Shown here in pieces: positions 37,624-52,950 of a stretch of DNA of 64,000 nt; the first letter of the stretch is position 1; each line of letters begins with the position of its first letter. The notes beneath the pieces were generated by a model. It made no database searches. It worked only from the letters and a program-made list of their open reading frames with translations, and was not told the origin of the DNA. The position numbers and the translations under genes were made by a program. The DNA is from Vulcanimicrobiota bacterium (GTDB taxonomy: Bacteria > Vulcanimicrobiota > Vulcanimicrobiia > Vulcanimicrobiales > Vulcanimicrobiaceae): positions 128,001-192,000 of the forward strand of contig CAWCIZ010000001.1 of assembly GCA_963795855.1 (NCBI GenBank), in the 5' to 3' direction.

Positions 37624-38558
37624 AAGTCGCGGTGGTCGGCGCGACAGGCGTGGTCGGCGAAACGATTTTGCGCGTGCTCGAAGAGCGCCGCCTGGCGGTC
37701 GACGGGGTCGGACGTTTTGCATCGCGCACTCGCGGCGACGTGCGGGAAACGACCGCGGAAGCGCTGGTGCAATACGATGCCGTGTTTTTCGCGAGTTCCG
37801 AAGATGCGAGCGAGAAATACGCGCCGCCGCTGCTGCAGCGCGGCGCAGTCGTCATCGACAACAGCTCGACGTTCCGCATGCGCGACGACGTCCCGCTCAT
37901 CGTGCCGGAAGTCAACGCGCACGCGCTTCGTCCGGAGCATCGCCTGTTTCCGGTCGGTAATTGCACCGCGATTATCTTGTGCGTGGCTCTCGCGCCTATT
38001 CGCGATTGTGCAGGCCTCGCATCGGTTCACGTCGCGACGTATCAGGCGATCAGCGGTGCGGGCCGCGCAGCGCTCGAGGAATTCGATCGCGGTGAAGGCA
38101 GCGTCGTGCGCAACGTCGTTCCGCAGATCGGCGGTTTCGGCGAAGGCGGATACACCGGTGAGGAATTGAAGGTCGCCGCCGAAACGCGCAAGATTCTCGA
38201 ACTGCCGGATCTGCCCATTTTCGCGACGTCGGTGCGCGTCCCGGTGCGCACCGCGCATTCCGAAGCGGTCTTCTTTCACACCGCGCGCCGCACCGGCGTG
38301 ACGGAACTCGCCGCCGCGTTCGAACGCGCGCCCGGCATTGTGTTTCACGGCGATGGAATCGTGACGCCGCGCGACGTGGAAGGCACCGACGCCGTTCACG
38401 TTGCTCGGCTTCGCGCGTGCGAGGGCGATTCCGGTGCGGACGGCCGCTCGTTTCAGATGTGGATCGTCGGCGACCAGCTGCGCAAAGGCGCCGCGACGAA
38501 CGGCGTGCAGATTCTCGAACTGCTCCTCAGCCGCCGCGCAAAAGCGGAACAGCCGTGA
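37620..38558 (+). CDS. asd: aspartate-semialdehyde dehydrogenase
   Basis: VVGATGVVG, VIDNSSTFRM, NCT, YQAISGAG, DQLRKGAATN. Confidence 0.93.
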   Translation: MKVAVVGATGVVGETILRVLEERRLAVDGVGRFASRTRGDVRETTAEALVQYDAVFFASSEDASEKYAPPLLQRGAVVIDNSSTFRMRDDVPLIVPEVNAHALRPEHRLFPVGNCTAIILCVALAPIRDCAGLASVHVATYQAISGAGRAALEEFDRGEGSVVRNVVPQIGGFGEGGYTGEELKVAAETRKILELPDLPIFATSVRVPVRTAHSEAVFFHTARRTGVTELAAAFERAPGIVFHGDGIVTPRDVEGTDAVHVARLRACEGDSGADGRSFQMWIVGDQLRKGAATNGVQILELLLSRRAKAEQP

Positions 38559-39786
38559 ATATCGTCGTCTTGAAATTCGGCGGAACGTCCCTTGCGACGG
38601 CGCGAGTTGCGAGAGATCGCCGTTCAGCGGCTGCGCGACGAACTCGAGCGCGGCTGCGCGCCTGTGGCCGTCGTTTCCGCGATAGGGCGGGCGCCCGAGC
38701 CATATGCGACGGATTCGTTTCTTTCGCTGGTCGGCGGCCGCGGCGCCACGCGCAACGCGGACGTGCTGCTCTCGTGCGCCGAGTTGATTTCCGCGGCGAT
38801 TTTTGCCGACACGCTCGAAGCGCAGGGCCTGCAGGCGTTTGCGCTGAGCGGCGCGCAAGCCGGCATCGTCACGACCGGAAAGCACGGCGACGCGAAGATC
38901 GTGCGCGTCGAAGCCGATCGCGTGCGCGAAATGTTGGAGTGCCGGCGCCATTCCGGTCGTCGCGGGCTTTCAAGGCGTAACGCAAGACGGCGAGGTGACG
39001 ACGCTCGGACGCGGCGGCAGCGACTTGACGGCGATCGCGCTCGGTCATGCACTCGGCGCCGTGCGAGTCGACATTTATACGGACGTAAGCGGCGCGATGA
39101 CGGGGGATCCTCGCCGCATCAGCGGAGCGCACACGATCGAACGCGCAAGTCTGGAAGAGATGACCGAACTCGCCGAGCACGGCGCGAAAGTCATGCACCA
39201 CAAGGCGGCGGACTTGGCTCAGCGCACCAATACGCCATACGCAATAAAGGGCCTCAGCACCGGACGCGGCACGCTGGTGGACGAAAACGTCGAACACGAG
39301 AAGCCCGTGACCGGCGTAACCACTTCGGGTCGCGTCACGTGGATTCGCGTGATTCGCGGGGATATCGAAGATCAGAAGCGTCGCATGGCGGTCGAACTCG
39401 AGATGTTTGGGCGCATCGCGGAAGCCGGTATCTCCATCGATCAGGTGACTATCAACCAAGCGGGTGTGATGTTCGTCGTAGAAGGAGACCGCGGCAGCGA
39501 GATACGCCAATTGCTCGGCGATCTCAATCTCGCGGTCCGCGTGCGCGAGGCCTGTTCGAAACTCTCCGTGGTCGGCGCCGCAATGCGCTACACGCCCGGC
39601 GTCATCACGGGTATCGTTCAGGCGCTTTCCGGCGCGAACGTCGAGATCATTCACTGCACGGACAGTAATATAACGGTTTCGATTCTCGTGCCGTCCGCCG
39701 ATGCGCACCGCGCCGAACAAGCCGTCCACGACAAGTTCCATCTGGAGGACGAAGCCGCGCTCAGCGGCCTGAAGGGAAGCGTTTGA
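38555..39786 (+). CDS. lysC: aspartate kinase (frameshifts near 38600 and 38940)
   Basis: [37 protein letters not shown] domains. Confidence 0.9.
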
Positions 39787-43072: not shown

Positions 43073-44164
43073 GTGGACGCACTAGACCGGCTTTTCTTGG
43101 AGCGCGCGAACGAACTCGCGCGCCGCGGCATCGGAAACACCTCTCCGAATCCTGCGGTGGGCGCCGTCGCGGTACGCGACGGTTCGATCGTAGGCGAGGG
43201 CTATCATCACCGCGCCGGCGAACCGCATGCGGAAGCGAACGCCCTGCGAGCCGCCGGAGAATCCTCGCGCGGCGCAACGCTGTACGTGTCATTAGAACCG
43301 TGCAATCACGCCGGCCGTACGCCGCCGTGCTCGCGCGCCGTCGTCGATGCGCACATCGCGCGTGTCGTGATCGGCGTCGCGGATCCGAATCCGCGAACTG
43401 CAGGCGGCGGCATCGCACATTTACGCGCGCACGGCATCGACGTCGAAATCGCGAACGACGCGGAATCGATCGCGATTGTCGAACCGTTTGCGCGCGCGAT
43501 TCGGGCGGATCGCCCATTCGTGACGCTGAAAATGGCGATGTCGCTCGACGGCTACGTCGCGTCGGGGCGAGGCGTGCAGCAGTGGCTGACCGGCCCGCAG
43601 GCGCGTGAATTCGTGCGCGAGCTTCGCATCGCGCATGACGCGGTTGCAGTGGGCGCCGGAACCGTGCGCGTGGACAACCCGCGCCTGACGGTCCGGCCCG
43701 AACATCACCGTCTTGTGCCGTACCGGCGTGTCGTCATGTGCGAAACGGATGCGGTCGAAAGCAAAAGCCTCGTCTTTTCGCCGCGTGAAGGTTACGCGCG
43801 CACCATCGTCGCGGCGCCGGCCGGCGCGCGCGAACGGTTTACGTCGCTCGAGCGTGTTGCCGACGTGCTCTACGTCGGGCCGGATGCTTCGCGCGACCTG
43901 GACGTCGCGCTGGCGCTGCGCGAATTGCGCGGCCTCGGCATCGCGTCACTTCTATGCGAGGGCGGCCCGACGCTTGCGGCGCGCCTGTTCGAAGCGGGAC
44001 TCGTCGATCGCTTTTACGGGCTGATTGCGCCGCGGTTCTTGCGTGCGCCCCAGGCCGTACCGGTGCTTGCGCGTGGCACACTGCCGCAGGTGCGGGGCCT
44101 TCGGTTCGACCGCGTCGAACGTGTGGGGCCGGATTTACTTATCGCAGGACTCGTGGATGTTTAG
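43073..44164 (+). CDS. ribD: riboflavin biosynthesis deaminase/reductase
   Basis: PNPAVG, HAE, LEPCNH..PPC, SLDG, CEGG. Confidence 0.95.
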   Translation: MDALDRLFLERANELARRGIGNTSPNPAVGAVAVRDGSIVGEGYHHRAGEPHAEANALRAAGESSRGATLYVSLEPCNHAGRTPPCSRAVVDAHIARVVIGVADPNPRTAGGGIAHLRAHGIDVEIANDAESIAIVEPFARAIRADRPFVTLKMAMSLDGYVASGRGVQQWLTGPQAREFVRELRIAHDAVAVGAGTVRVDNPRLTVRPEHHRLVPYRRVVMCETDAVESKSLVFSPREGYARTIVAAPAGARERFTSLERVADVLYVGPDASRDLDVALALRELRGLGIASLLCEGGPTLAARLFEAGLVDRFYGLIAPRFLRAPQAVPVLARGTLPQVRGLRFDRVERVGPDLLIAGLVDV

Positions 44165-44771
44165 CGGATTGATTTCATCGGGTGGCACCGTGCTGCAGGC
44201 GCAGCCGGAATCGGGCGGACTGCGGCTGCGCGTGCGCTGTGAGAACGCGTCCGACGAGGAAGTGGAAGCGAAGGACTCAATCGCAATCAATGGCGTCTGT
44301 CTGACCGCTACGCGCGTCGATCACAACGTCATCGACTTTGACGTGATTCCGGAGACGCTCGCGCGTTCGAATCTCGGGTCGCTGGCTGAAGGCGACGTCG
44401 TGAACGTCGAGTATTCGCTCCGCTTGGGCGATCGTATGGGCGGACATTTCGTCTACGGACACGTCGATGCGTCCGCGCAAGTCCTGGCGCGCGAACCCGA
44501 AGGCCAAGGCGAGCGCATGCGCATCGAACTTCCGGCGTCGCTGCAGCGGTACGTCTGTGAAAAGGCGTTCGTGAGCGTCGACGGCGTGAGCGTGACGGTC
44601 GCCGCGGTAGGCGAGGGATGGTTCGAACTCGGACTCATTCCCGAAACGCTGCGGCGCACCACGCTCGGACGCAGAAAACGCGGCGAACGCGTGAATCTCG
44701 AGATCGATCCGCTCGCGCGCTACGCGGCCGGCTACGCTTTGTCCGGCACTGCGGCCAATGGCGACGTTTAA
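44157..44771 (+). CDS. ribE: riboflavin synthase (alpha subunit)
   Basis: MFSGLI start, INGVCLT, GGHFVYGHVD, VNLEID. Confidence 0.93.
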   Translation: MFSGLISSGGTVLQAQPESGGLRLRVRCENASDEEVEAKDSIAINGVCLTATRVDHNVIDFDVIPETLARSNLGSLAEGDVVNVEYSLRLGDRMGGHFVYGHVDASAQVLAREPEGQGERMRIELPASLQRYVCEKAFVSVDGVSVTVAAVGEGWFELGLIPETLRRTTLGRRKRGERVNLEIDPLARYAAGYALSGTAANGDV

Positions 44772-45213
44772 AGACGACAAGCCCGCAAGCGCTCGAACGT
44801 TCGAGGCGCGCGTCATGGTGCAATGGGCGGACGTCGACATCGCCGGCATCATGTATTTCGCGGCATACCAGCGCGCGGCGGAGCGCGCCGAAATGGAGTT
44901 TTTCTCGGAAATCGGTTTTCCGTACCAGACGGTCTTCCAAGAGCACGACATTTGGCTTCCGCGTGTGCACGTCGAAGCGGACTATCACAAACCGGCGCTC
45001 ATGGGCGACTGGCTCCGTTTGCGCACGCACATCACGCACGTCGGCGCGTCGTCCGTCAAATGGGAGACGGTCGTGTTCAACGAGCGCACCAGCGAGGCCG
45101 GTGCGGTCATGCGGCTCACCGTCGCCTGCATGGATCGCCGAACGCTCAAGAGCCGGCCGCTTCCAGCCGCGATTCGTGCCGCGCTCGTCGCGTGCTTGGG
45201 AGATCCGCAGTGA
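44758..45213 (+). CDS. acyl-CoA thioesterase (YbgC/4HBT family)
   Basis: VQWADVDIAGIMYF hotdog-fold motif. Confidence 0.85.
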   Translation: MATFKDDKPASARTFEARVMVQWADVDIAGIMYFAAYQRAAERAEMEFFSEIGFPYQTVFQEHDIWLPRVHVEADYHKPALMGDWLRLRTHITHVGASSVKWETVVFNERTSEAGAVMRLTVACMDRRTLKSRPLPAAIRAALVACLGDPQ

Positions 45214-46253
45214 TCGTTCAGCGCACGACGATGCGGTCGGCAATTCTCGTCGAGCCGAAAAAGATCGAATTGCGCGGCGTAGCGATGCCGCAGCCGGCGC
45301 GCGGCGCAGTGGTGGTTCGCGTCCGCGCCGCACTCACGGATGGAACCGATCTCAAAGCGTATCGACGCGGACATCCGCAAATGCCCATGCCCACGCCGTT
45401 CGGGCACGAATTTTCCGGTGATGTCACTGCAGTCGGCGAAGGTGTGACGAAGTTTTCGCCCGGCGATGCGATCATGAGCGTTCACTCGGCGCCGTGCACG
45501 GTGTGCTATTGGTGCGAGCGCGGTGAAGAAGAGCTCTGCGAGTCGGTGATGGCCACGAAAATCTTGGGCGCGTACGCGGAATACATCGAGATTCCCGGAC
45601 ACATCGTCGAACGGAACTGCTACCGCAAACCGCCGGACCTCTCGTACGCCTGCGCCGCCTTTCTGGAACCGGTTTCATGCGTCGTGCATTCGCTCGATTT
45701 TCTTGCCGCCGCGAAGCGCTCCACGGTCGCCGTCATCGGGGACGGCGGGTTCGGCTTGCTGCATGCGGCGCTGCTCGCGCAGGGCGGTATGCGCGCAATT
45801 CTCGTGGGGCGCCATCAGGAGCGGATGCGCATCGGACGCGCTTTCGGCGTTCGGGAAACCATCGACGCGCGCAGCGAAGACGTCGCCCAACGCGTGCGTG
45901 AACTTACCGAAGGCCGCGGCGCGGATGCGCTCGTCGAGTGTACCGGCAAAGAAGAAATCTGGGAGGCAGCGCCGATGATGGTGCGGCGCGGCGGCACGGT
46001 TTCATTCTTCGGCGGCTTACCGTCGAGTGCGCGCGTGTCGTTCTTGGCGGGACGTCTCCATTACGATGAAGTGCGGCTCGTCAGCCCGTTTCATTTCACG
46101 CCGCGCGCGGTGAAGCGCGCATACGATCTGCTCGCGTCGCGCGAGCTGGATCCGGCGCCGCTGATCAGCGGCAGCGTGTCGTTAGAGAGCATCGGCGAGG
46201 TTTTCGCGCGCCTGGACGCGGGGGAAGGCATAAAATTCGCGATTCAGCCGTGA
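45210..46253 (+). CDS. zinc-binding alcohol dehydrogenase family protein
   Basis: GHE motif, CxxCxxCx7C structural zinc site, GDGGFG. Confidence 0.88.
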   Translation: MIVQRTTMRSAILVEPKKIELRGVAMPQPARGAVVVRVRAALTDGTDLKAYRRGHPQMPMPTPFGHEFSGDVTAVGEGVTKFSPGDAIMSVHSAPCTVCYWCERGEEELCESVMATKILGAYAEYIEIPGHIVERNCYRKPPDLSYACAAFLEPVSCVVHSLDFLAAAKRSTVAVIGDGGFGLLHAALLAQGGMRAILVGRHQERMRIGRAFGVRETIDARSEDVAQRVRELTEGRGADALVECTGKEEIWEAAPMMVRRGGTVSFFGGLPSSARVSFLAGRLHYDEVRLVSPFHFTPRAVKRAYDLLASRELDPAPLISGSVSLESIGEVFARLDAGEGIKFAIQP

Positions 46254-47257
46254 ACTCGAAGATGCGTGCCGCCGTTCTCTACGACGTCGACGATATTCGC
46301 ATCGAACAACGGGACGTTCCGCAGATCGGTGCCGGAGAATTGCTCGTGCAAACGCGCGCGAGCGGCATCTGCACCGGAGACGTGATGGGGTGGTACGTGC
46401 GGCGCAAGGCGCCGCTCGTGCTCGGACACGAACCCGCGGGCGTCGTCGCTGCAGTCGGCGAAGGCGTGCGAGGCTTTGCGCCGGGCGACCGCGTCTTCGT
46501 TCACCACCATGCGCCCTGTTTTGAGTGCGCCGCATGCGAGCGCGGCGATTACGTGCAATGCGCTACGTGGCGCCGAACGGCGATTCATCCCGGCGGCCTG
46601 GCCGAGTTCTTTCGCGTGCCGCGCGAGAACGTGCGCGATACGCTGCAGCTTCCGCAGAACGTGTCGTTCGTCGATGCGTCACTCGTCGAGCCGCTGGCAT
46701 GCGTCGTGAAATCGATAAAGCGCAGCGGGCTGCGCAGCGGCGAAACGATCTACGTCATCGGCCTGGGCGTCATGGGTCTCATGCACGCGCTTCTCGGGCA
46801 AGCACGCGGTGCGAATGTTGTCGGATCTGATTTTCTGGAGGAGCGCCGCGAGCATGCCGCCGCACTCGGCGTCCGCGCACTTCATCCGCGCGAGGGCTTT
46901 TCGGGTGCAAACGTGGTGATTTGCGGTCCCGGTTCGCCGGAAGCGCTGCGCGATGCGTTCGCCGCGGTCGCAGCCGGCGGAACGGTCGTCATGTTCACGC
47001 CGCTCGAACCGGGTGTGCCGTTCACCTTCGACGCGAATGACTTGTATTTTCGCGACGTAACGCTCGTGGCGAGTTATTCGTGCGGCCCGCGCGATACGCG
47101 CGAGGCGCTCGACTTCATCGCGCGCGGCGTCGTTACCGCGGAGCGGCTGGGCGCGACGCTCTTCCCGCTGGAAGAAGCGGCCGCCGCGTATGACGCGCTC
47201 CGCGGTTCGCGAATTCTCAAACCGATTGTGACGTTCGAACCGTCGCTGTTTCCCTAA
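46250..47257 (+). CDS. zinc-binding alcohol dehydrogenase family protein
   Basis: GICTGD, GHE, CxxCxxCx7C, GLGVMG. Confidence 0.88.
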   Translation: MNSKMRAAVLYDVDDIRIEQRDVPQIGAGELLVQTRASGICTGDVMGWYVRRKAPLVLGHEPAGVVAAVGEGVRGFAPGDRVFVHHHAPCFECAACERGDYVQCATWRRTAIHPGGLAEFFRVPRENVRDTLQLPQNVSFVDASLVEPLACVVKSIKRSGLRSGETIYVIGLGVMGLMHALLGQARGANVVGSDFLEERREHAAALGVRALHPREGFSGANVVICGPGSPEALRDAFAAVAAGGTVVMFTPLEPGVPFTFDANDLYFRDVTLVASYSCGPRDTREALDFIARGVVTAERLGATLFPLEEAAAAYDALRGSRILKPIVTFEPSLFP

Positions 47258-47898
47258 ACGGTGGGATAGCCCGGGCCGCCCGAAACGCGGTTCAGCGTTG
47301 CTTCCGATCCAATGGTTCCCGTCGTTGTCGTCTGCGTTTCGCCGCCGCGCCACGCTGCGCGCGCTTCGGCCTGCGATTGCTGAGCAACGGAGAGATCCAC
47401 CGGCATACCGATGTCGTTCAAATCCTGTACGACAACCGACGGAAGCAGGTCGCCGATTTCAACGATCGCCTGCGTGTAGTCTTCCAGATGACGGCGTGCG
47501 AGCGACGCGACGTCGGTGCTGCCGAACGCGTTGGCCGTCGTCAGCAGCATCGTGTAGCCCGCGGTACACAGCGCCAAAGCCGTGTACGAGTCGCGCAAGC
47601 CTTTCGCGACTTTCGTTTTTCGCATCTTGTCGATCGCGCTCGCCACCCACCCTTCGACGTTGGTGAACGCCGACTTCACCGGATGCGCCGGATGTCCGCC
47701 CAGCGAATCGAGCGCAGCGCGCAGCGTCTGTATGTGACTCTGCGAGAGCGACGAGATGCGCTGAGCGACTGCCGCGGCTTGCGGCATGTTGCGGAAATCG
47801 TCGTCGTTGCTTTGTGTCGTGAACGGTACGTTGACATGCTCTTCGAGGGCAAGCATGTCGCTTACGTACGTCGCTAAACTATGTTGTACGTCTGCCAT
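47254..47898 (-). CDS. ferritin-like (DUF892-like) stress protein
   Basis: YVSDMLALEEH, helical bundle pattern, LRDSYTAL, HLEDY. Confidence 0.6.
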   Translation of the reverse strand: MADVQHSLATYVSDMLALEEHVNVPFTTQSNDDDFRNMPQAAAVAQRISSLSQSHIQTLRAALDSLGGHPAHPVKSAFTNVEGWVASAIDKMRKTKVAKGLRDSYTALALCTAGYTMLLTTANAFGSTDVASLARRHLEDYTQAIVEIGDLLPSVVVQDLNDIGMPVDLSVAQQSQAEARAAWRGGETQTTTTGTIGSEATLNRVSGGPGYPTV

Positions 47899-48329
47899 GA
47901 TGGAGGCGGTGTACCCCTCGTTCCGCGTGTTCAAGTGCGGGGCGCTCCCTCGTGTGCTGCACGGCCCGGAGGCACAGGCGCTCCGTGCCATACGTCGGTC
48001 ACCGCATGAGGTGGTACTGAACCTATGGAGGTAGCATGACCCTCCTCATCATTGGTCCGGTGCTGTACTTCGGAGGAAGGTGGCTTGTTGAAATACCCGA
48101 TCCCTATGCCCCATCTGTGCCGAACTTGTGCGAGCAAATTATGGGATGATGGGTGCCCCCATTGCGCAGGCCGATAGGCCATTCCTCAGGGAGCAACCCG
48201 CGGCTTTGCCTACAACGCGCGAATGCGAGCGCTCTTTTTGCAATTTGAAGCCCGTTGGCGTTACCAACAAAAGCCCTAAGATCATTGAGATTCCCGTTTC
48301 TTTAGTTTGCTGCTCAACCAAGTTGGTTT

Positions 48330-49397
48330 TCAGTGCCGATTGTAACGCGCCTGATCGACGACTTCCTCAATTGCGGAGATAACGGCTGTCGGATGATCTA
48401 GCAAAATTGCGTGATGCGAGGCGGCAACAACAAAGTGAGCACCGACGGACGAGAGTCGTGCCAAGTGGTCTTCAGCCTTATCCTTCGCAAGCCACTCCGC
48501 TCGTTGCGCCGCCACGGATATTGGCCCCGGCGAGTAGTCGATGTCTCCCTCCTCCGAATCGGTGAGTACGATGAGAGGAAGCTTCCCGTAGGGGCGTGCC
48601 GCGCCGCGCACTTCGGAATGGCTCTTGTCTTCCGACTTCAGTTCGAGCATTTCGTCTTTCCAAAACGAAGGTTGGGCCAAGTGCTTTGCGCGCACTTCTG
48701 CAATCGCGCATTCCCTATCGGAGGGGTTTGGACACCCTTTTACGTGTAGATACGCGGCTGCGCCAGGAAAGAACGCACATGTTCCGCGTCCCACATTCTT
48801 TGCGCAATCAGCGAACTGGCCGTACCACTCTTGTTCTTGGTTGTCGTACCACGCAAGCGGCTTGTGCATAGCGGACGTGACGATCTTCGCGTAGTCGGTT
48901 AACGTAGCGAACTCGGTGTCCGGGTCAACCTCTACGAGACCGACAACCTCGCCCGGATAGGTGTACTGAAAGAGACGCGTGTACGGGCCCCCGCTCGACC
49001 ACCCGACGAGCACGTAGGGCGCGGTGATTCCCGCTTTCTGCAGAAGTGCGTGCAAATCGCTGACGATCGCGGCCGCATCCCGCGCATCATTTGCCGGATC
49101 GCTGAAACCTAAACCGGCTCTATCGTATGAGCAGACTCTCGTGTTTTGTGAAACGGCGGGTTGCACCAATCGCCACGCTGTCGAATCAGCCAGGAGCCCC
49201 GCCTCAAGAATCACCGTCGGTGAACCTTTACCAGTGCAAACGACGTTTAGCCGTCGTCCGCCGATATCAACAAGGTGAGCAGGATGCACGTACAAACTGA
49301 CATCATACGGTTGCGGTTTGATAGGCTTCGCCGCAACTTGTGTAAGAATCATCGTGCCAATAAGGGCAGCACGAAATAAGCATGTAAATGCTTTCAC
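48330..49397 (-). CDS. secreted alpha/beta hydrolase
   Basis: signal peptide, YDRAGLGFS, GWSSGG nucleophile elbow, C-terminal His. Confidence 0.85.
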   Translation of the reverse strand: MKAFTCLFRAALIGTMILTQVAAKPIKPQPYDVSLYVHPAHLVDIGGRRLNVVCTGKGSPTVILEAGLLADSTAWRLVQPAVSQNTRVCSYDRAGLGFSDPANDARDAAAIVSDLHALLQKAGITAPYVLVGWSSGGPYTRLFQYTYPGEVVGLVEVDPDTEFATLTDYAKIVTSAMHKPLAWYDNQEQEWYGQFADCAKNVGRGTCAFFPGAAAYLHVKGCPNPSDRECAIAEVRAKHLAQPSFWKDEMLELKSEDKSHSEVRGAARPYGKLPLIVLTDSEEGDIDYSPGPISVAAQRAEWLAKDKAEDHLARLSSVGAHFVVAASHHAILLDHPTAVISAIEEVVDQARYNRH

Positions 49398-49423
49398 GAA
49401 TTTCCTTCCTGGGTTAAACCCAG

Positions 49424-49984
49424 TTAGTTTACGCTATTTAACGTGCGCCTGATGGATTGGTACAGACCGGCGCCAAGGCACATTGCGGGAATAGCTCCGA
49501 AAAGACCAATCCAAGCTACAAGCGGCGCTTGAGATCCTGGGTGCCCTGCGAGCGCTGGAAGGATGAAGCACAAGACGAGAAATAGTGACGCGAAAAATGC
49601 AACCCGCAGGCCATCGGTCCCCACGAGTCGCCCAAGGACCGCACCGAAAAGCGCTGCATTGACGTAGTCCATCGAAATTGTTACCGCAAGTGGCAGAAAG
49701 CTCTCTGCAATGAATACATGCACGAGGAGCATCGCAGCAAGCACGGCGAGCGTGATGAGGGCGATCCTGACCTGTCCGAGTGCGGATGTATGTGATCGAG
49801 AATACGAGAGCAGCGAGGGTATTGAAAGCAGTGCCTGCGACCAATACCAGCGCGTTGCGTCCTTCGCCCCGCGTGAATGAAGAATGCGCAGATATTCCTC
49901 CTGCAAATCGCCAGCAACGATCTCATAATCTCCTGAAGGGGCAGCTGCGGCGACGAGCGCTTGAGCGAGGGCAGGCGGCCTCAC
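49424..49984 (-). CDS. membrane protein with permease-prefix-like N-terminus (PadR partner)
   Basis: GDLQEEY...WYWSQ motif followed by four hydrophobic segments. Confidence 0.7.
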   Translation of the reverse strand: MRPPALAQALVAAAAPSGDYEIVAGDLQEEYLRILHSRGAKDATRWYWSQALLSIPSLLSYSRSHTSALGQVRIALITLAVLAAMLLVHVFIAESFLPLAVTISMDYVNAALFGAVLGRLVGTDGLRVAFFASLFLVLCFILPALAGHPGSQAPLVAWIGLFGAIPAMCLGAGLYQSIRRTLNSVN

Positions 49985-50313
49985 GCGATCACGTTCCGTA
50001 GTGATACGCCTGCGTGAAGTCGTTCGAGGGTCTTTTGCGCGTTCTTGAGTGCCGCAACGCCATCTGCCTCAACTTTGAAATGCCGTTTTGCCTTGCCGCC
50101 GCGCTCGGCGGTCGGTTCGCCGGTCCACGACGACACGAGTCCTTTTCGTTCGAGACGGTCCAGGGTCGCGTGGACGGTACCAATTGCGGGAGAGCGACCT
50201 GTTACGCGCTCGATTTCAGCGCGAATCATTGCCCCGTACGCGCCCTCGCCGAGACGGAGGATTGTGAGCAGGACAATATGCTCGAACTCCCCGAGGTACT
50301 CGCCTTTCGCCAT
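49981..50313 (-). CDS. PadR family transcriptional regulator
   Basis: LGEFEHIVLL, YGAMIR, TLDRLERKG, ERGGKAKR. Confidence 0.92.
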   Translation of the reverse strand: MAKGEYLGEFEHIVLLTILRLGEGAYGAMIRAEIERVTGRSPAIGTVHATLDRLERKGLVSSWTGEPTAERGGKAKRHFKVEADGVAALKNAQKTLERLHAGVSLRNVIA

Positions 50314-50322
50314 AATTTCGAC

Positions 50323-50351
50323 ATAATAGACAATATGGCGTCCATTGTCAA
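50323..50351 (-). promoter_or_regulatory. padR promoter TTGACA-N17-TATTAT
   Basis: -35 at 50351-50346, -10 at 50328-50323, 9 nt before the ATG. Confidence 0.7.
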
Positions 50352-50558: not shown

Positions 50559-50588
50559 CTTGACAACTGTCAAGTCCGGCGATACGGT
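50559..50588 (+). promoter_or_regulatory. ribBA promoter TTGACA-N17-TACGGT with palindrome CTTGACA-AC-TGTCAAG over the -35
   Basis: palindrome 50559-50574; -10 at 50583-50588, 6 nt before the GTG start. Confidence 0.7.
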
Positions 50589-50594
50589 CGGTCT

Positions 50595-52013
50595 GTGAGT
50601 GTATTCGCCGACGAATTGAATGCCGCGATGGACGCCGCGGGGCTGAACGCCACCGAGCTCGCCCAGCGCTGCGGCCTGACCGAATCTGCCATCTCGTACC
50701 TGCGGTCCGGGCAACGGGAGCCCTCGTATCGCTCGCTGCAGCGGCTGACTCAGGTGCTGCCCGATCTGACCGGCACCCTGGAAAACGCATCGCCCTTCGA
50801 TTCCATCGAAGAGGCCGTCAAAGACGTTCGGGCCGGCAAGATGGTCATCGTGCTCGACGACGAGGATCGCGAAAACGAAGGCGATCTCGTGATGGCGGCG
50901 CAGATGGTCACGCCCGAAGCGATCAACTTCATGCGCAAGTACGCGGGCGGTCTTATCTGCGTGCCGATGATCGGCAAACGCCTGGACGAACTGCACCTGC
51001 CGCAAATGGTCTCCGAAAACAGCGCGGTGCATGAAACCGCCTTCACCGTTTCCGTTGAAGCGCGCGGTCGAACCACGACGGGCATTTCCGCGCACGATCG
51101 CGCGGCCACGATTCAAGCGCTGCTCGAACCGGCGACGAGGCCGTCCGATCTGCTGCGCCCGGGACACACGTTTCCGCTTCGCGCGCGCGACGGCGGCGTG
51201 CTCGTGCGTGCCGGTCAAACCGAAGCGTCCGTCGATCTCGCTCGACTCGCGGGTCTGTATCCCGCCGGCGTCATTTGCGAAATCATGGCCGAAGACGGAA
51301 CGATGGAGCGGCTCGATGGTTTGATCGAATTCGCGAAGCGCCACTCGTTGAAACTCATCACCGTGAAAGATCTCATCGCCTACCGGTGGCGCATGGAGAA
51401 ACTGCTGCATCGCATCGCCGAATTCAAACTCCCGACCGAAGTGGGAACGTGGACCGGCTATGCCTTTGAAAACACGATCGACGGCAACACGCACGTTGCG
51501 ATGGTTATGGGTGAAATCGGCGACGGCCGCGACTTGCTGGTGCGCGTACACTCGGAATGTTTGACCGGCGATGCCCTGCACTCGCTGCGTTGCGACTGCG
51601 CGGCGCAACGCGACGGCGCAATGCACATCATCGCAAAAGAAGGGCGCGGCATCTTTCTGTATTTACGGCAGGAAGGCCGCGGAATCGGCCTGGCCAACAA
51701 GCTTCGCGCCTACCAACTCCAAGACAACGGTGCGGACACGGTCGAAGCGAACATCGCGCTCGGCCTGCCCGTCGACAAACGCGACTACGGAATCGGCTCG
51801 CAGATTTTGGCCGATCTCGGCGTGAAAGAGATGCGTGTCATCACGAACAACCCGCGCAAAATTTTCGGTTTGGAAGGCTACGGCATCAAGATCGTCGGCC
51901 GCGTGCCGCTGCACACGGAACCTACGCAGTACAACAAGCGATATATCGCGACCAAACGCAGCAAACTCGGACACATGTTCGGCGAAACGCTGCCGCACGG
52001 CGGCCACGCATGA
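50595..52013 (+). CDS. ribBA: XRE-HTH fused DHBP synthase/GTP cyclohydrolase II
   Basis: N-terminal HTH (LNATELAQRCGLTESAISYLRSGQREPS), DDEDRENEGD, RVHSECLTGD, CDC, QEGRGIG, TNNP. Confidence 0.95.
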   Translation: MSVFADELNAAMDAAGLNATELAQRCGLTESAISYLRSGQREPSYRSLQRLTQVLPDLTGTLENASPFDSIEEAVKDVRAGKMVIVLDDEDRENEGDLVMAAQMVTPEAINFMRKYAGGLICVPMIGKRLDELHLPQMVSENSAVHETAFTVSVEARGRTTTGISAHDRAATIQALLEPATRPSDLLRPGHTFPLRARDGGVLVRAGQTEASVDLARLAGLYPAGVICEIMAEDGTMERLDGLIEFAKRHSLKLITVKDLIAYRWRMEKLLHRIAEFKLPTEVGTWTGYAFENTIDGNTHVAMVMGEIGDGRDLLVRVHSECLTGDALHSLRCDCAAQRDGAMHIIAKEGRGIFLYLRQEGRGIGLANKLRAYQLQDNGADTVEANIALGLPVDKRDYGIGSQILADLGVKEMRVITNNPRKIFGLEGYGIKIVGRVPLHTEPTQYNKRYIATKRSKLGHMFGETLPHGGHA

Positions 52014-52555
52014 AAACCGCAAAAGACACCGCGCCCAAACCCGATTGCTCGGGAAAACGCTTCACGATTATCGCCGCGCGTTTCTACGAAGATCTCGCAG
52101 GCTGGCTTGAAGACGGCGCGCGCCGCGCGCTTCACGATTGCGGCGTCAAAGACGAACACATCTCGGTATATCACGTGCCGGGCTGCTTTGAATTGCCGCT
52201 CGCGGCCAAGCGGCTCATCGCGGCAGACGAACGGCTCGATGCCATTGTCGCGCTAGGTGCCGTGGTGCGCGGCGAAACGCCGCATTTTGACTACGTCGCG
52301 GGCGAATGCGCGCGGGGCTTGATGACGGTCCAGCTCGCCACCGGCGTCCCCATCGGGTTCGGCGTGCTCACGACCGAGAATCTCCAGCAGGCGCGTGATC
52401 GTGCGAACCCTGAAAAAGGTGACAAGGGTTATGATGCCGCGATCGCGGCGGCATCGTTGCTGCACATTCCCGAGGAAACGGGAAAAGAGGTCGTCGGTTT
52501 TCGGGCAGGCCGCAACGCCCTTCAACCAAGCGAGGAATCCTTGCGACACAAGTAG
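52010..52555 (+). CDS. ribH: 6,7-dimethyl-8-ribityllumazine synthase
   Basis: VPGCFELP, GAVVRGETPHFDYV, FGVLT. Confidence 0.95.
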   Translation: MKTAKDTAPKPDCSGKRFTIIAARFYEDLAGWLEDGARRALHDCGVKDEHISVYHVPGCFELPLAAKRLIAADERLDAIVALGAVVRGETPHFDYVAGECARGLMTVQLATGVPIGFGVLTTENLQQARDRANPEKGDKGYDAAIAAASLLHIPEETGKEVVGFRAGRNALQPSEESLRHK

Positions 52556-52592
52556 CATAAATTGGCTCGCTACTTTTGTGGAGGCTCGACCC

Positions 52593-52889
52593 TTGGAAGA
52601 CAAGAGCATTACCTGTAAAGAATGCGGGCAACCGTTTATTTTTACGGTCCGCGACCAGCAATTCTATGCCGAAAAAGGCTTTCAAAACGAGCCGCAACGG
52701 TGCCGGGACTGTCGTCAGGCTCGCAAAGGCCAGGGGGGCGGTTCGTCTTCGGGCAGCTCAGCGCGGCCGAGTTACGAAGCCGTGTGCGCCGAATGCGGAA
52801 CGTCGACGACGGTGCCGTTCCGGCCGCGCGGTGATCGGCCGGTTTACTGCCGGGCTTGCTTTGCCGCGCATCAGCCCGCGGCGGTGTAG
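52593..52889 (+). CDS. zinc-ribbon/CxxC-x17-CxxC domain protein
   Basis: GGAGG RBS, TTG start, CKECG..FYAEKGF..PQRCRDC, CAECG..VPFRP..PVYCRAC. Confidence 0.9.
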   Translation: MEDKSITCKECGQPFIFTVRDQQFYAEKGFQNEPQRCRDCRQARKGQGGGSSSGSSARPSYEAVCAECGTSTTVPFRPRGDRPVYCRACFAAHQPAAV

Positions 52890-52917: not shown

Positions 52918-52950
52918 AAAGCCGCGCGAATGGTTCGCGCGGCTTTTTGT
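52918..52950 (+). terminator. Rho-independent terminator
   Basis: AAAGCCGCGCGAA-TGG-TTCGCGCGGCTTT then TTGT. Confidence 0.85.

Follow-up and report, generated by a model that had tools for sequence, protein, structure and literature searches.

A 64,000-nucleotide stretch of the genome of a Vulcanimicrobiota bacterium (contig CAWCIZ010000001.1, positions 128,001 to 192,000; hereafter the window) carries on its forward strand a gene in which an XRE/Cro-type helix-turn-helix (HTH) domain is fused to RibBA of riboflavin biosynthesis, with intact catalytic motifs. We conclude that this protein is quite probably an autorepressor of ribBA and ribH, acting through a palindrome placed over its own predicted promoter. 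This role had already been proposed in the initial annotation of the window and it is favoured by the behaviour of the site, which is conserved together with the HTH, is lost where the HTH is lost, and is a different one for each different HTH. The part of the proposal that did not stand is the implied role of the fusion as a substitute for a flavin mononucleotide (FMN) riboswitch.

The fusion gene occupies positions 50595 to 52013, starts with GTG and encodes 472 amino acids in an open reading frame without internal stops. The HTH domain covers residues 4-58 (50604-50768; recognition helix TESAISYLRSGQREP) and was recognised by its fold as well as by Pfam, as HTH_3 at residues 10-55 (E 5e-7, 30 bits against a cut-off of 23). 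A linker of residues 59-67 (50769-50795), whose length differs among the fusions, leads to the RibB or 3,4-dihydroxy-2-butanone 4-phosphate (DHBP) synthase domain (50808-51383; DHBP_synthase, residues 72-263), which is followed by the RibA or guanosine triphosphate (GTP) cyclohydrolase II domain (51411-51908; GTP_cyclohydro2, residues 273-438). Furthermore, the protein reached 617 bits with the NCBIfam model of RibBA, PRK09311, whose cut-off is 569, and it was above the cut-offs of TIGR00506 and TIGR00505. The HTH is read in frame into a complete RibBA, as initially annotated, and the stop or indel at the junction with RibB that had been considered was not borne out: the identical in-frame junction recurs in dozens of other genomes and therefore an assembly artefact is excluded.

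Regarding the enzyme domains, the fusion contains DDEDRENEGD, C122, TTGISAxDR, H191 and E229, as well as Y373, R396 and the cysteines C322, C333 and C335, which we take to be the catalytic and zinc residues of RibB and RibA. In all 38 fused proteins aligned, the acidic, Cys, His, Tyr and Arg residues among these were invariant, and the columns of TTGISAxDR, except x, were 95-100% conserved in the same alignment. Position 208 is Q where His is usual, and Q was likewise present in 7 of 7 unfused proteins of the sister order and at 30 of 77 unrelated loci. Because the only RibB and RibA domains that we found in the 86%-complete genome of the window are those of the fusion, we infer that it has both activities.

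The AlphaFold model of the fusion (mean predicted local distance difference test score 71) shows five N-terminal helices (residues 2-15, 19-26, 30-38, 45-54 and 56-65), followed by a RibBA that matches PDB 4I14. The HTH part superposes on C.AhdI, C.BclI, SinR and P22 c2 at 0.9 A over about 52 residues, and C.Esp1396I and HppE were also among its fold matches. These matches were weak, with E values of 0.01-0.05 and none at E<=0.001. None of the 17 solved structures matched at E<=1e-40 aligned before residue 63. The column conservation was 0.91 in the region of the recognition helix (residues 27-44), 0.49 in the linker, and 0.89 and 0.87 in the two enzyme domains.

The predicted operator, CTTGACA-AC-TGTCAAG, lies at 50559-50574 (core 50560-50573). 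Its left arm is at the same time the predicted -35 box TTGACA (50560-50565, forward strand), which is followed by a 17-nucleotide spacer, the predicted -10 box TACGGT of the TAnnnT type (50583-50588, forward strand), 6 nucleotides and the GTG at 50595; palindrome, boxes, spacing and start codon all stand exactly where the initial annotation had placed them. The gap of 6 nucleotides between the predicted -10 box and the start codon implies a leaderless messenger RNA. The gene ribH (lumazine synthase; 52010-52555, forward strand) overlaps the stop codon of ribBA by ATGA and is likely co-transcribed. When the genome was scanned for further copies, as had been proposed, TTGACANNTGTCAA was found within one mismatch solely at the ribBA site. 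Moreover, among the 21 leaderless-like promoters of this genome only one contains the right arm of the operator, and it is the ribBA promoter.

The conservation of the palindrome among the orthologs was checked in 64 fused loci, which are all the fused loci fetched with upstream sequence and were picked for genus spread and not for the motif. The consensus TTDAC-R-NN-Y-GTNAA (TTDACRNNYGTNAA) was matched over the -35 box in 61 of them, and the other 3 were one-base variants. G10, A13 and A14 of the right arm were invariant, variation was seen at the two bases in the centre and later in the spacer, and the flanking spacer positions carried less than 0.7 bit. The layout of -35 box, -10 box and leaderless start was kept in 53 loci, and only 3 had a 4-mer similar to a Shine-Dalgarno (SD) sequence. 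Some lineages alter the arm at the -35 box and yet stay symmetric (TTAAC..GTTAA, TTTAC..GTAAA).

In seven of these loci (L017, L018, L020, L021, L148, L162 and L163) we observed a second operator, which is weaker than the first one and lies 28-29 bp upstream of it, and two further loci carry an extra site at -54 and -93. The seven loci, together with L016 and L166, have S, T or K instead of E or Q at position 42 of the HTH, and most of them have a shifted promoter layout. The regulation of the double-operator loci is possibly cooperative or similar to that of controller proteins. When residue 42 was compared with operator positions 6 and 9, we counted 48 loci with E/Q and the standard bases, 3 with E/Q and variant bases, 9 with another residue and variant bases, and 4 with another residue and the standard bases. 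This covariation is suggestive; it comes mostly from a few related lineages in a quick tree, and hence we did not count it as evidence.

The lineages that have lost the HTH behave as natural controls. G106, G155 and G302 are without HTH and are nested inside the fused clade on the RibB tree, where a clade of only the HTH-bearing Vulcanimicrobiota obtained a p value of 0.04 in the approximately unbiased (AU) test. The palindrome is absent in 3 of 3. G106 retains TTGACA-17-TAGCCT-6-ATG with a right arm decayed to CGTTTG, a vestige of the site, CTGACAACCGATCT, is left in G155, and G302 has no trace of the palindrome and shows an SD-like GAGGA. All five congeners of G155 retain both the HTH and TTGACAACTGTTAA. 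No relative of the HTH was found elsewhere in G106 and G155. This set left out three weak matches, G291, G358 and G366.

The distribution of the fusion was examined in an even draw of 151 genomes of the phylum, 48 of which gave no match with the fusion query. The match extends to the N-terminus in 77 of the 80 genomes of family f1 and in both genomes of family f2, that is, in 79 of the 82 genomes of the order, whereas no N-terminal HTH was matched in 10 sister-order genomes or in the 10 matched genomes of other classes. Therefore the HTH::RibBA fusion is order-wide and not phylum-wide. The homologues are labelled Candidatus Eremiobacterota or Vulcanimicrobiota in their sources; the tallies of the sister order include an unpublished genome, G036, and no claim depends on it alone. 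Two genomes, G056 and G029, seemed unfused solely on account of contig ends. A free-standing donor of the HTH was not found: the seven shorter matches were fragments of the fusion, and a search of representatives for it gave only multi-HTH repeat proteins and fusions.

A profile search of 1.84 billion representatives gave further HTH::RibB proteins in Alphaproteobacteria and Dehalococcoidia, whose heads are unrelated to that of the Vulcanimicrobiota and come with other palindromes. The alphaproteobacterial family, HTH::RibBX, includes the cultured Aestuariivirga litoralis. Among the alphaproteobacterial matches listed, 120 of 120 carry HTH_3 and DHBP_synthase, and their cyclohydrolase domain is without the zinc cysteines. 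An interaction between FMN and RibBX was reportedly proposed by Wang et al. in 2019, and we do not use it as evidence. In the 29 of 68 metagenome loci that were full-length with upstream DNA, once near-duplicates and a diverged type had been dropped, TATTAG-N5-CTAATA covers the -10 region exactly in 22 and within one mismatch in 25, and it ends 6-8 nucleotides before the ATG in 28. The diverged type (4 loci) has another recognition helix and the site TTTCAGTA-W-TACTGAAA, and Pfam misses its head. The third fusion is clear in 2 of 121 Dehalococcoidia genomes, both with two copies of RTGTGAG-N6-TAACAT, one at the -10 box and one at the start codon. The AU test on the RibB domain (quick tree, LG+G4) rejected one origin for all three fusions (p 0.0014) and also a joint origin of those of Vulcanimicrobiota and Dehalococcoidia (p 0.0018). 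The design has thus likely arisen separately in two other bacterial groups, and each unrelated head has its own palindrome on what is predicted to be its own promoter.

Some other candidates from these searches were rejected: the apparent fusions in Pseudomonas and other phyla, of which 13 were checked, were due to chance extension of the reading frame 5' of the start codon, often through stops, and a protein with TetR and RibB, P0098, is apparently an artefact of read-through or of a frameshift. In P0107, P0153 and P0118 the order of the domains is reversed, with GTP cyclohydrolase II preceding DHBP synthase.

Regarding the extent of the regulon, ribH is the next gene after the fusion in nearly all loci, and the evidence argues for a regulon of ribBA-ribH only. 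In the window, ribD and ribE (riboflavin synthase; 43073-44771, forward strand), the upstream half of the ancestral rib operon, sit 5.8-7.5 kb upstream of the fusion and apparently outside the regulon. In the sister order the genes form a ribD-ribE-ribBA-ribH operon in which ribBA comes directly after ribE, without operator site. An operator upstream of ribD was not found in 24 of 25 fused loci, the other one having a weak site. A wider regulon was not found: ribD is nearly devoid of sites, the next-best matrix match in the window genome is intragenic (17.0 against 28.4), and the loose operator pattern occurs 0-7 times per genome and about equally often in those without the fusion. Among the 16 extra sites that were fetched, the assignable ones were ends of insertion sequences (IS), ArsR promoters or intragenic.

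The FMN riboswitch is the control for which the initial annotation implied the fusion to be a substitute. RF00050 was found in none of 41 genomes, fused or unfused, although a control gave it in 7 of 14; it was also absent from 18 loci that include the alphaproteobacterial and Dehalococcoidia fusions, and in the window Rfam gave two transfer RNAs and nothing else. Therefore, as the unfused relatives are also without RF00050, the fusion added a control at this node and did not replace a riboswitch.

The mechanism that we propose is a simple one. Dimerisation of RibB would pair the two tethered HTH heads, which would bind the two halves of TTGAC-N4-GTCAA. The bound heads would cover the -35 box and the spacer, and RNA polymerase with sigma-70 would be blocked; it is this position of the site that points to repression rather than activation. 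The resulting negative feedback loop could hold the levels of RibBA and RibH steady, with leaderless translation and the ATGA overlap coupling the output of both proteins to the loop. Its input would most likely be the concentration of the assembled oligomer, and a tuning by RibB ligands is possible.

Several observations weigh against the autorepressor. The palindrome by itself is unremarkable, given that a perfect 7-bp inverted repeat appeared in 208 of 2000 dinucleotide shuffles of the 197-nucleotide intergenic stretch; as about 10% of the shuffles give one by chance, its significance rests on its conservation. The fused loci are kin and not independent, 11 of the 64 are without the standard promoter layout, and there are just three loss events in the set, two of them within one subclade. 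A sigma-70 scanner calls no promoter here, TACGGT having 3 of the 6 bases of TATAAT. The autoregulatory ArsR sites of some relatives share the core TTGAC-N4-GTCAA. Finally, it is odd for a feedback on flavin levels that ribD and ribE should be outside the loop.

This last point also speaks against a sub-case of the autorepressor, a true trigger enzyme in which a RibB ligand (ribulose-5-phosphate, DHBP, a metal or FMN) alters the dimer and switches the binding to the operator. We regard it as possible, with more doubt than confidence. The active sites of RibB are at the dimer interface, and the HTH is joined directly to RibB in all three independent fusions. According to PMC5397151, ribB is the commonest target of the archaeal regulator RbkR (80 of 94 genomes) and the only rib gene controlled by a riboswitch in Escherichia coli, and RbkR, BirA, NadR and PutA sense through their enzyme domains. 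However, the linker varies in sequence and length, and no enzyme residues were found that track the loss of the HTH convincingly: 12 enzyme positions split fused from sister-order proteins, and they look like clade differences because G155, the one protein without HTH in that alignment, keeps the fused residue at 11 of them. Furthermore, according to a 2026 review, the level of riboflavin does not directly regulate the riboflavin enzymes (PMC13151069). A sensing of GTP cannot, judging from the motifs, be general across HTH::RibB fusions, because the alphaproteobacterial form is without the zinc cysteines of the cyclohydrolase. As a tentative extension, RibB might be a reusable metabolic sensor to which an XRE head was grafted at least three times in bacteria, giving a ligand-controlled repressor that reads ribulose-5-phosphate, DHBP or flavin at the dimer and throttles the synthesis of riboflavin. 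If this were true, a dedicated, protein-based feedback regulator of the riboflavin pathway would for the first time be known from riboswitch-free bacteria.

It is unlikely that the protein activates as well as represses, like the C proteins of restriction-modification systems, even when this is limited to the lineages with two operators. The matches of the HTH model to C.AhdI, C.BclI and C.Esp1396I would agree with it, as would the extra sites described above (28-29 bp upstream in 7 of 64 loci, and -54 and -93 in two more), which are mostly found without the standard -35/-10 spacing, and RbkR is proposed to activate (PMC5397151). Nevertheless, the window and most loci have one site, which coincides with a consensus -35 box, and a protein bound there would block the polymerase.

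Very improbable, too, is that the palindrome is the site of another regulator (an ArsR-family repressor or the divergently encoded PadR) and that the HTH is structural or inert, a role also ascribed to the XRE-like domain in the epoxidase HppE. HppE is among the fold matches of the HTH, a padR gene lies divergently at 49981-50331, and ArsR genes in G020, G033 and G037 have sites similar to TATTGAC-N4-GTCAATA. However, padR is beside the fusion only in the locus of the window genome, whose ArsR orthologue has a different upstream site, TATTGACTATCTTCGATGT; the ArsR sites occur also in the sister order, whose ribBA is without a site; the palindrome disappeared together with the HTH in all 3 cases; and the remaining HTH::RibB families have different palindromes. 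In the class, such ArsR self-promoter sites are at L264:2049, L276:2054 and L277:2084, and the orthologue in G000 is on C3 near 441,000.

Hardly credible is the reading of the palindrome as a transposon footprint or target: the ends of IS1595-family elements abut it within 2 mismatches in 9 of 64 loci (16 within 4) and 13 of 14 exact IS ends in 201 genomes run into ACA-NN-TGT, but the window and 48 of the 64 loci have no IS end, which already largely refutes it, the right arm is host sequence, each promoter insertion restores the site, and insertion cannot conserve a target across an order.

The IS1595-family elements themselves (Pfam DDE_Tnp_IS1595 plus a zinc ribbon) are inserted in the ribBA operator in several genera (L164:2995-5167, L171:3037-5065, L157:4996 and L279-L292), none of them in the window. 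In G158 and G125, where the IS end restores the -35 arm, both ends are visible and the operator core seems to be duplicated over 8 bp, which may also be read as 2 bp. The 14 exact IS ends are in 10 of the 201 genomes and 7 of them are at the ribBA promoter. The element seems to be an IS with a site preference that uses a safe target which repairs itself, and its insertion may explain part of the variable cargo upstream of ribBA.

In the window, ribE is followed by genes for a thioesterase and two zinc alcohol dehydrogenases (44758-47257). Many genomes of the order keep them at this place, before the fusion, and the sister order does not have them there. The variable cargo (47254-50331, minus strand) consists of a DUF-like gene, an alpha/beta hydrolase, a membrane protein and the PadR regulator. 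Downstream, a small double zinc-finger (treble clef) gene at 52590-52889, which comes after ribH in most fused loci, is followed by a terminator-like hairpin (52918-52946) and an IF-2B-family (mtnA-like) gene. An aspartokinase-like gene at 38417-39786 seems split over two frames near 38.95-39.0 kb, by a frameshift or a sequencing error. At G000 C3:253,127 (minus-strand index) there is another leaderless-like promoter, TTGACAAGTACTTGACTAGTCAAGTATGTT, with its own palindrome, CTTGACTAGTCAAG, which probably belongs to a different autoregulated gene.

Riboflavin is made by many bacteria that have no FMN riboswitch, and for the control of the pathway in them these data supply a named protein, an exact predicted operator and natural loss controls. 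The recurrence of the fusion three times, always on RibB, marks the level of DHBP synthase as a control point, and the cultured carrier A. litoralis makes the system directly testable. Furthermore, a compact self-limiting RibB(A) is relevant to the engineering of flavin overproduction, and databases label these proteins as plain enzymes, which hides a regulatory role. We found no description of an HTH::RibB(A) regulator in the full-text literature searched; most subscription journals and the regulon databases were outside its scope, and an earlier mention is possible, especially of the alphaproteobacterial form. Passages on the subject in three 2025-2026 reviews name riboswitches and general or fungal regulators and no such bacterial enzyme-repressor (PMC13151069, PMC12542839, PMC13028884), and RibBX is mentioned in one sentence of PMC12458113.

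Compared with XRE/Cro repressors and controller proteins (434 cI, P22 c2, SinR, C.AhdI), the fusion has in common the five-helix fold and a 14-bp palindromic operator on its own promoter, whereas a metabolic enzyme replaces the peptidase or dimerisation domain and the gene is chromosomal and vertically inherited. Lambda cI and the C proteins resemble it also in their leaderless message. With plain RibBA (PRK09311; PDB 4I14, RibA2 of Mycobacterium tuberculosis) it shares both domains and the catalytic motifs, and it differs in the additional N-terminal HTH of 60 amino acids. The head of NadR is of the XRE type. NadR, BirA and PutA likewise fuse a repressor domain to an enzyme of the regulated pathway, although these are other enzymes and pathways, and ligand-controlled binding is proven for them (PMC5397151), whereas for the fusion it is a possibility. 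Like a trigger enzyme, it would combine in one chain a DNA-binding domain and an enzyme of the pathway that it regulates. Bacterial transcription factors that bind the promoter of a bifunctional ribA are described for Wolbachia, wBmxR1 and wBmxR2; however, they are stand-alone activators tied to a type IV secretion operon, unfused and not autoregulatory (PMC3518464). The closest known system is the archaeal RbkR, a winged HTH joined to a cytidine triphosphate-dependent riboflavin kinase (PMC5397151). Pfam gives only HTH_3, DHBP_synthase and GTP_cyclohydro2 on our protein, which does not place it in the RbkR family: it joins an XRE/Cro HTH to the first biosynthetic enzyme, RibBA, its host is bacterial and its regulon is apparently its own operon only. 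Finally, the position of its site implies repression, whereas RbkR is proposed to activate.

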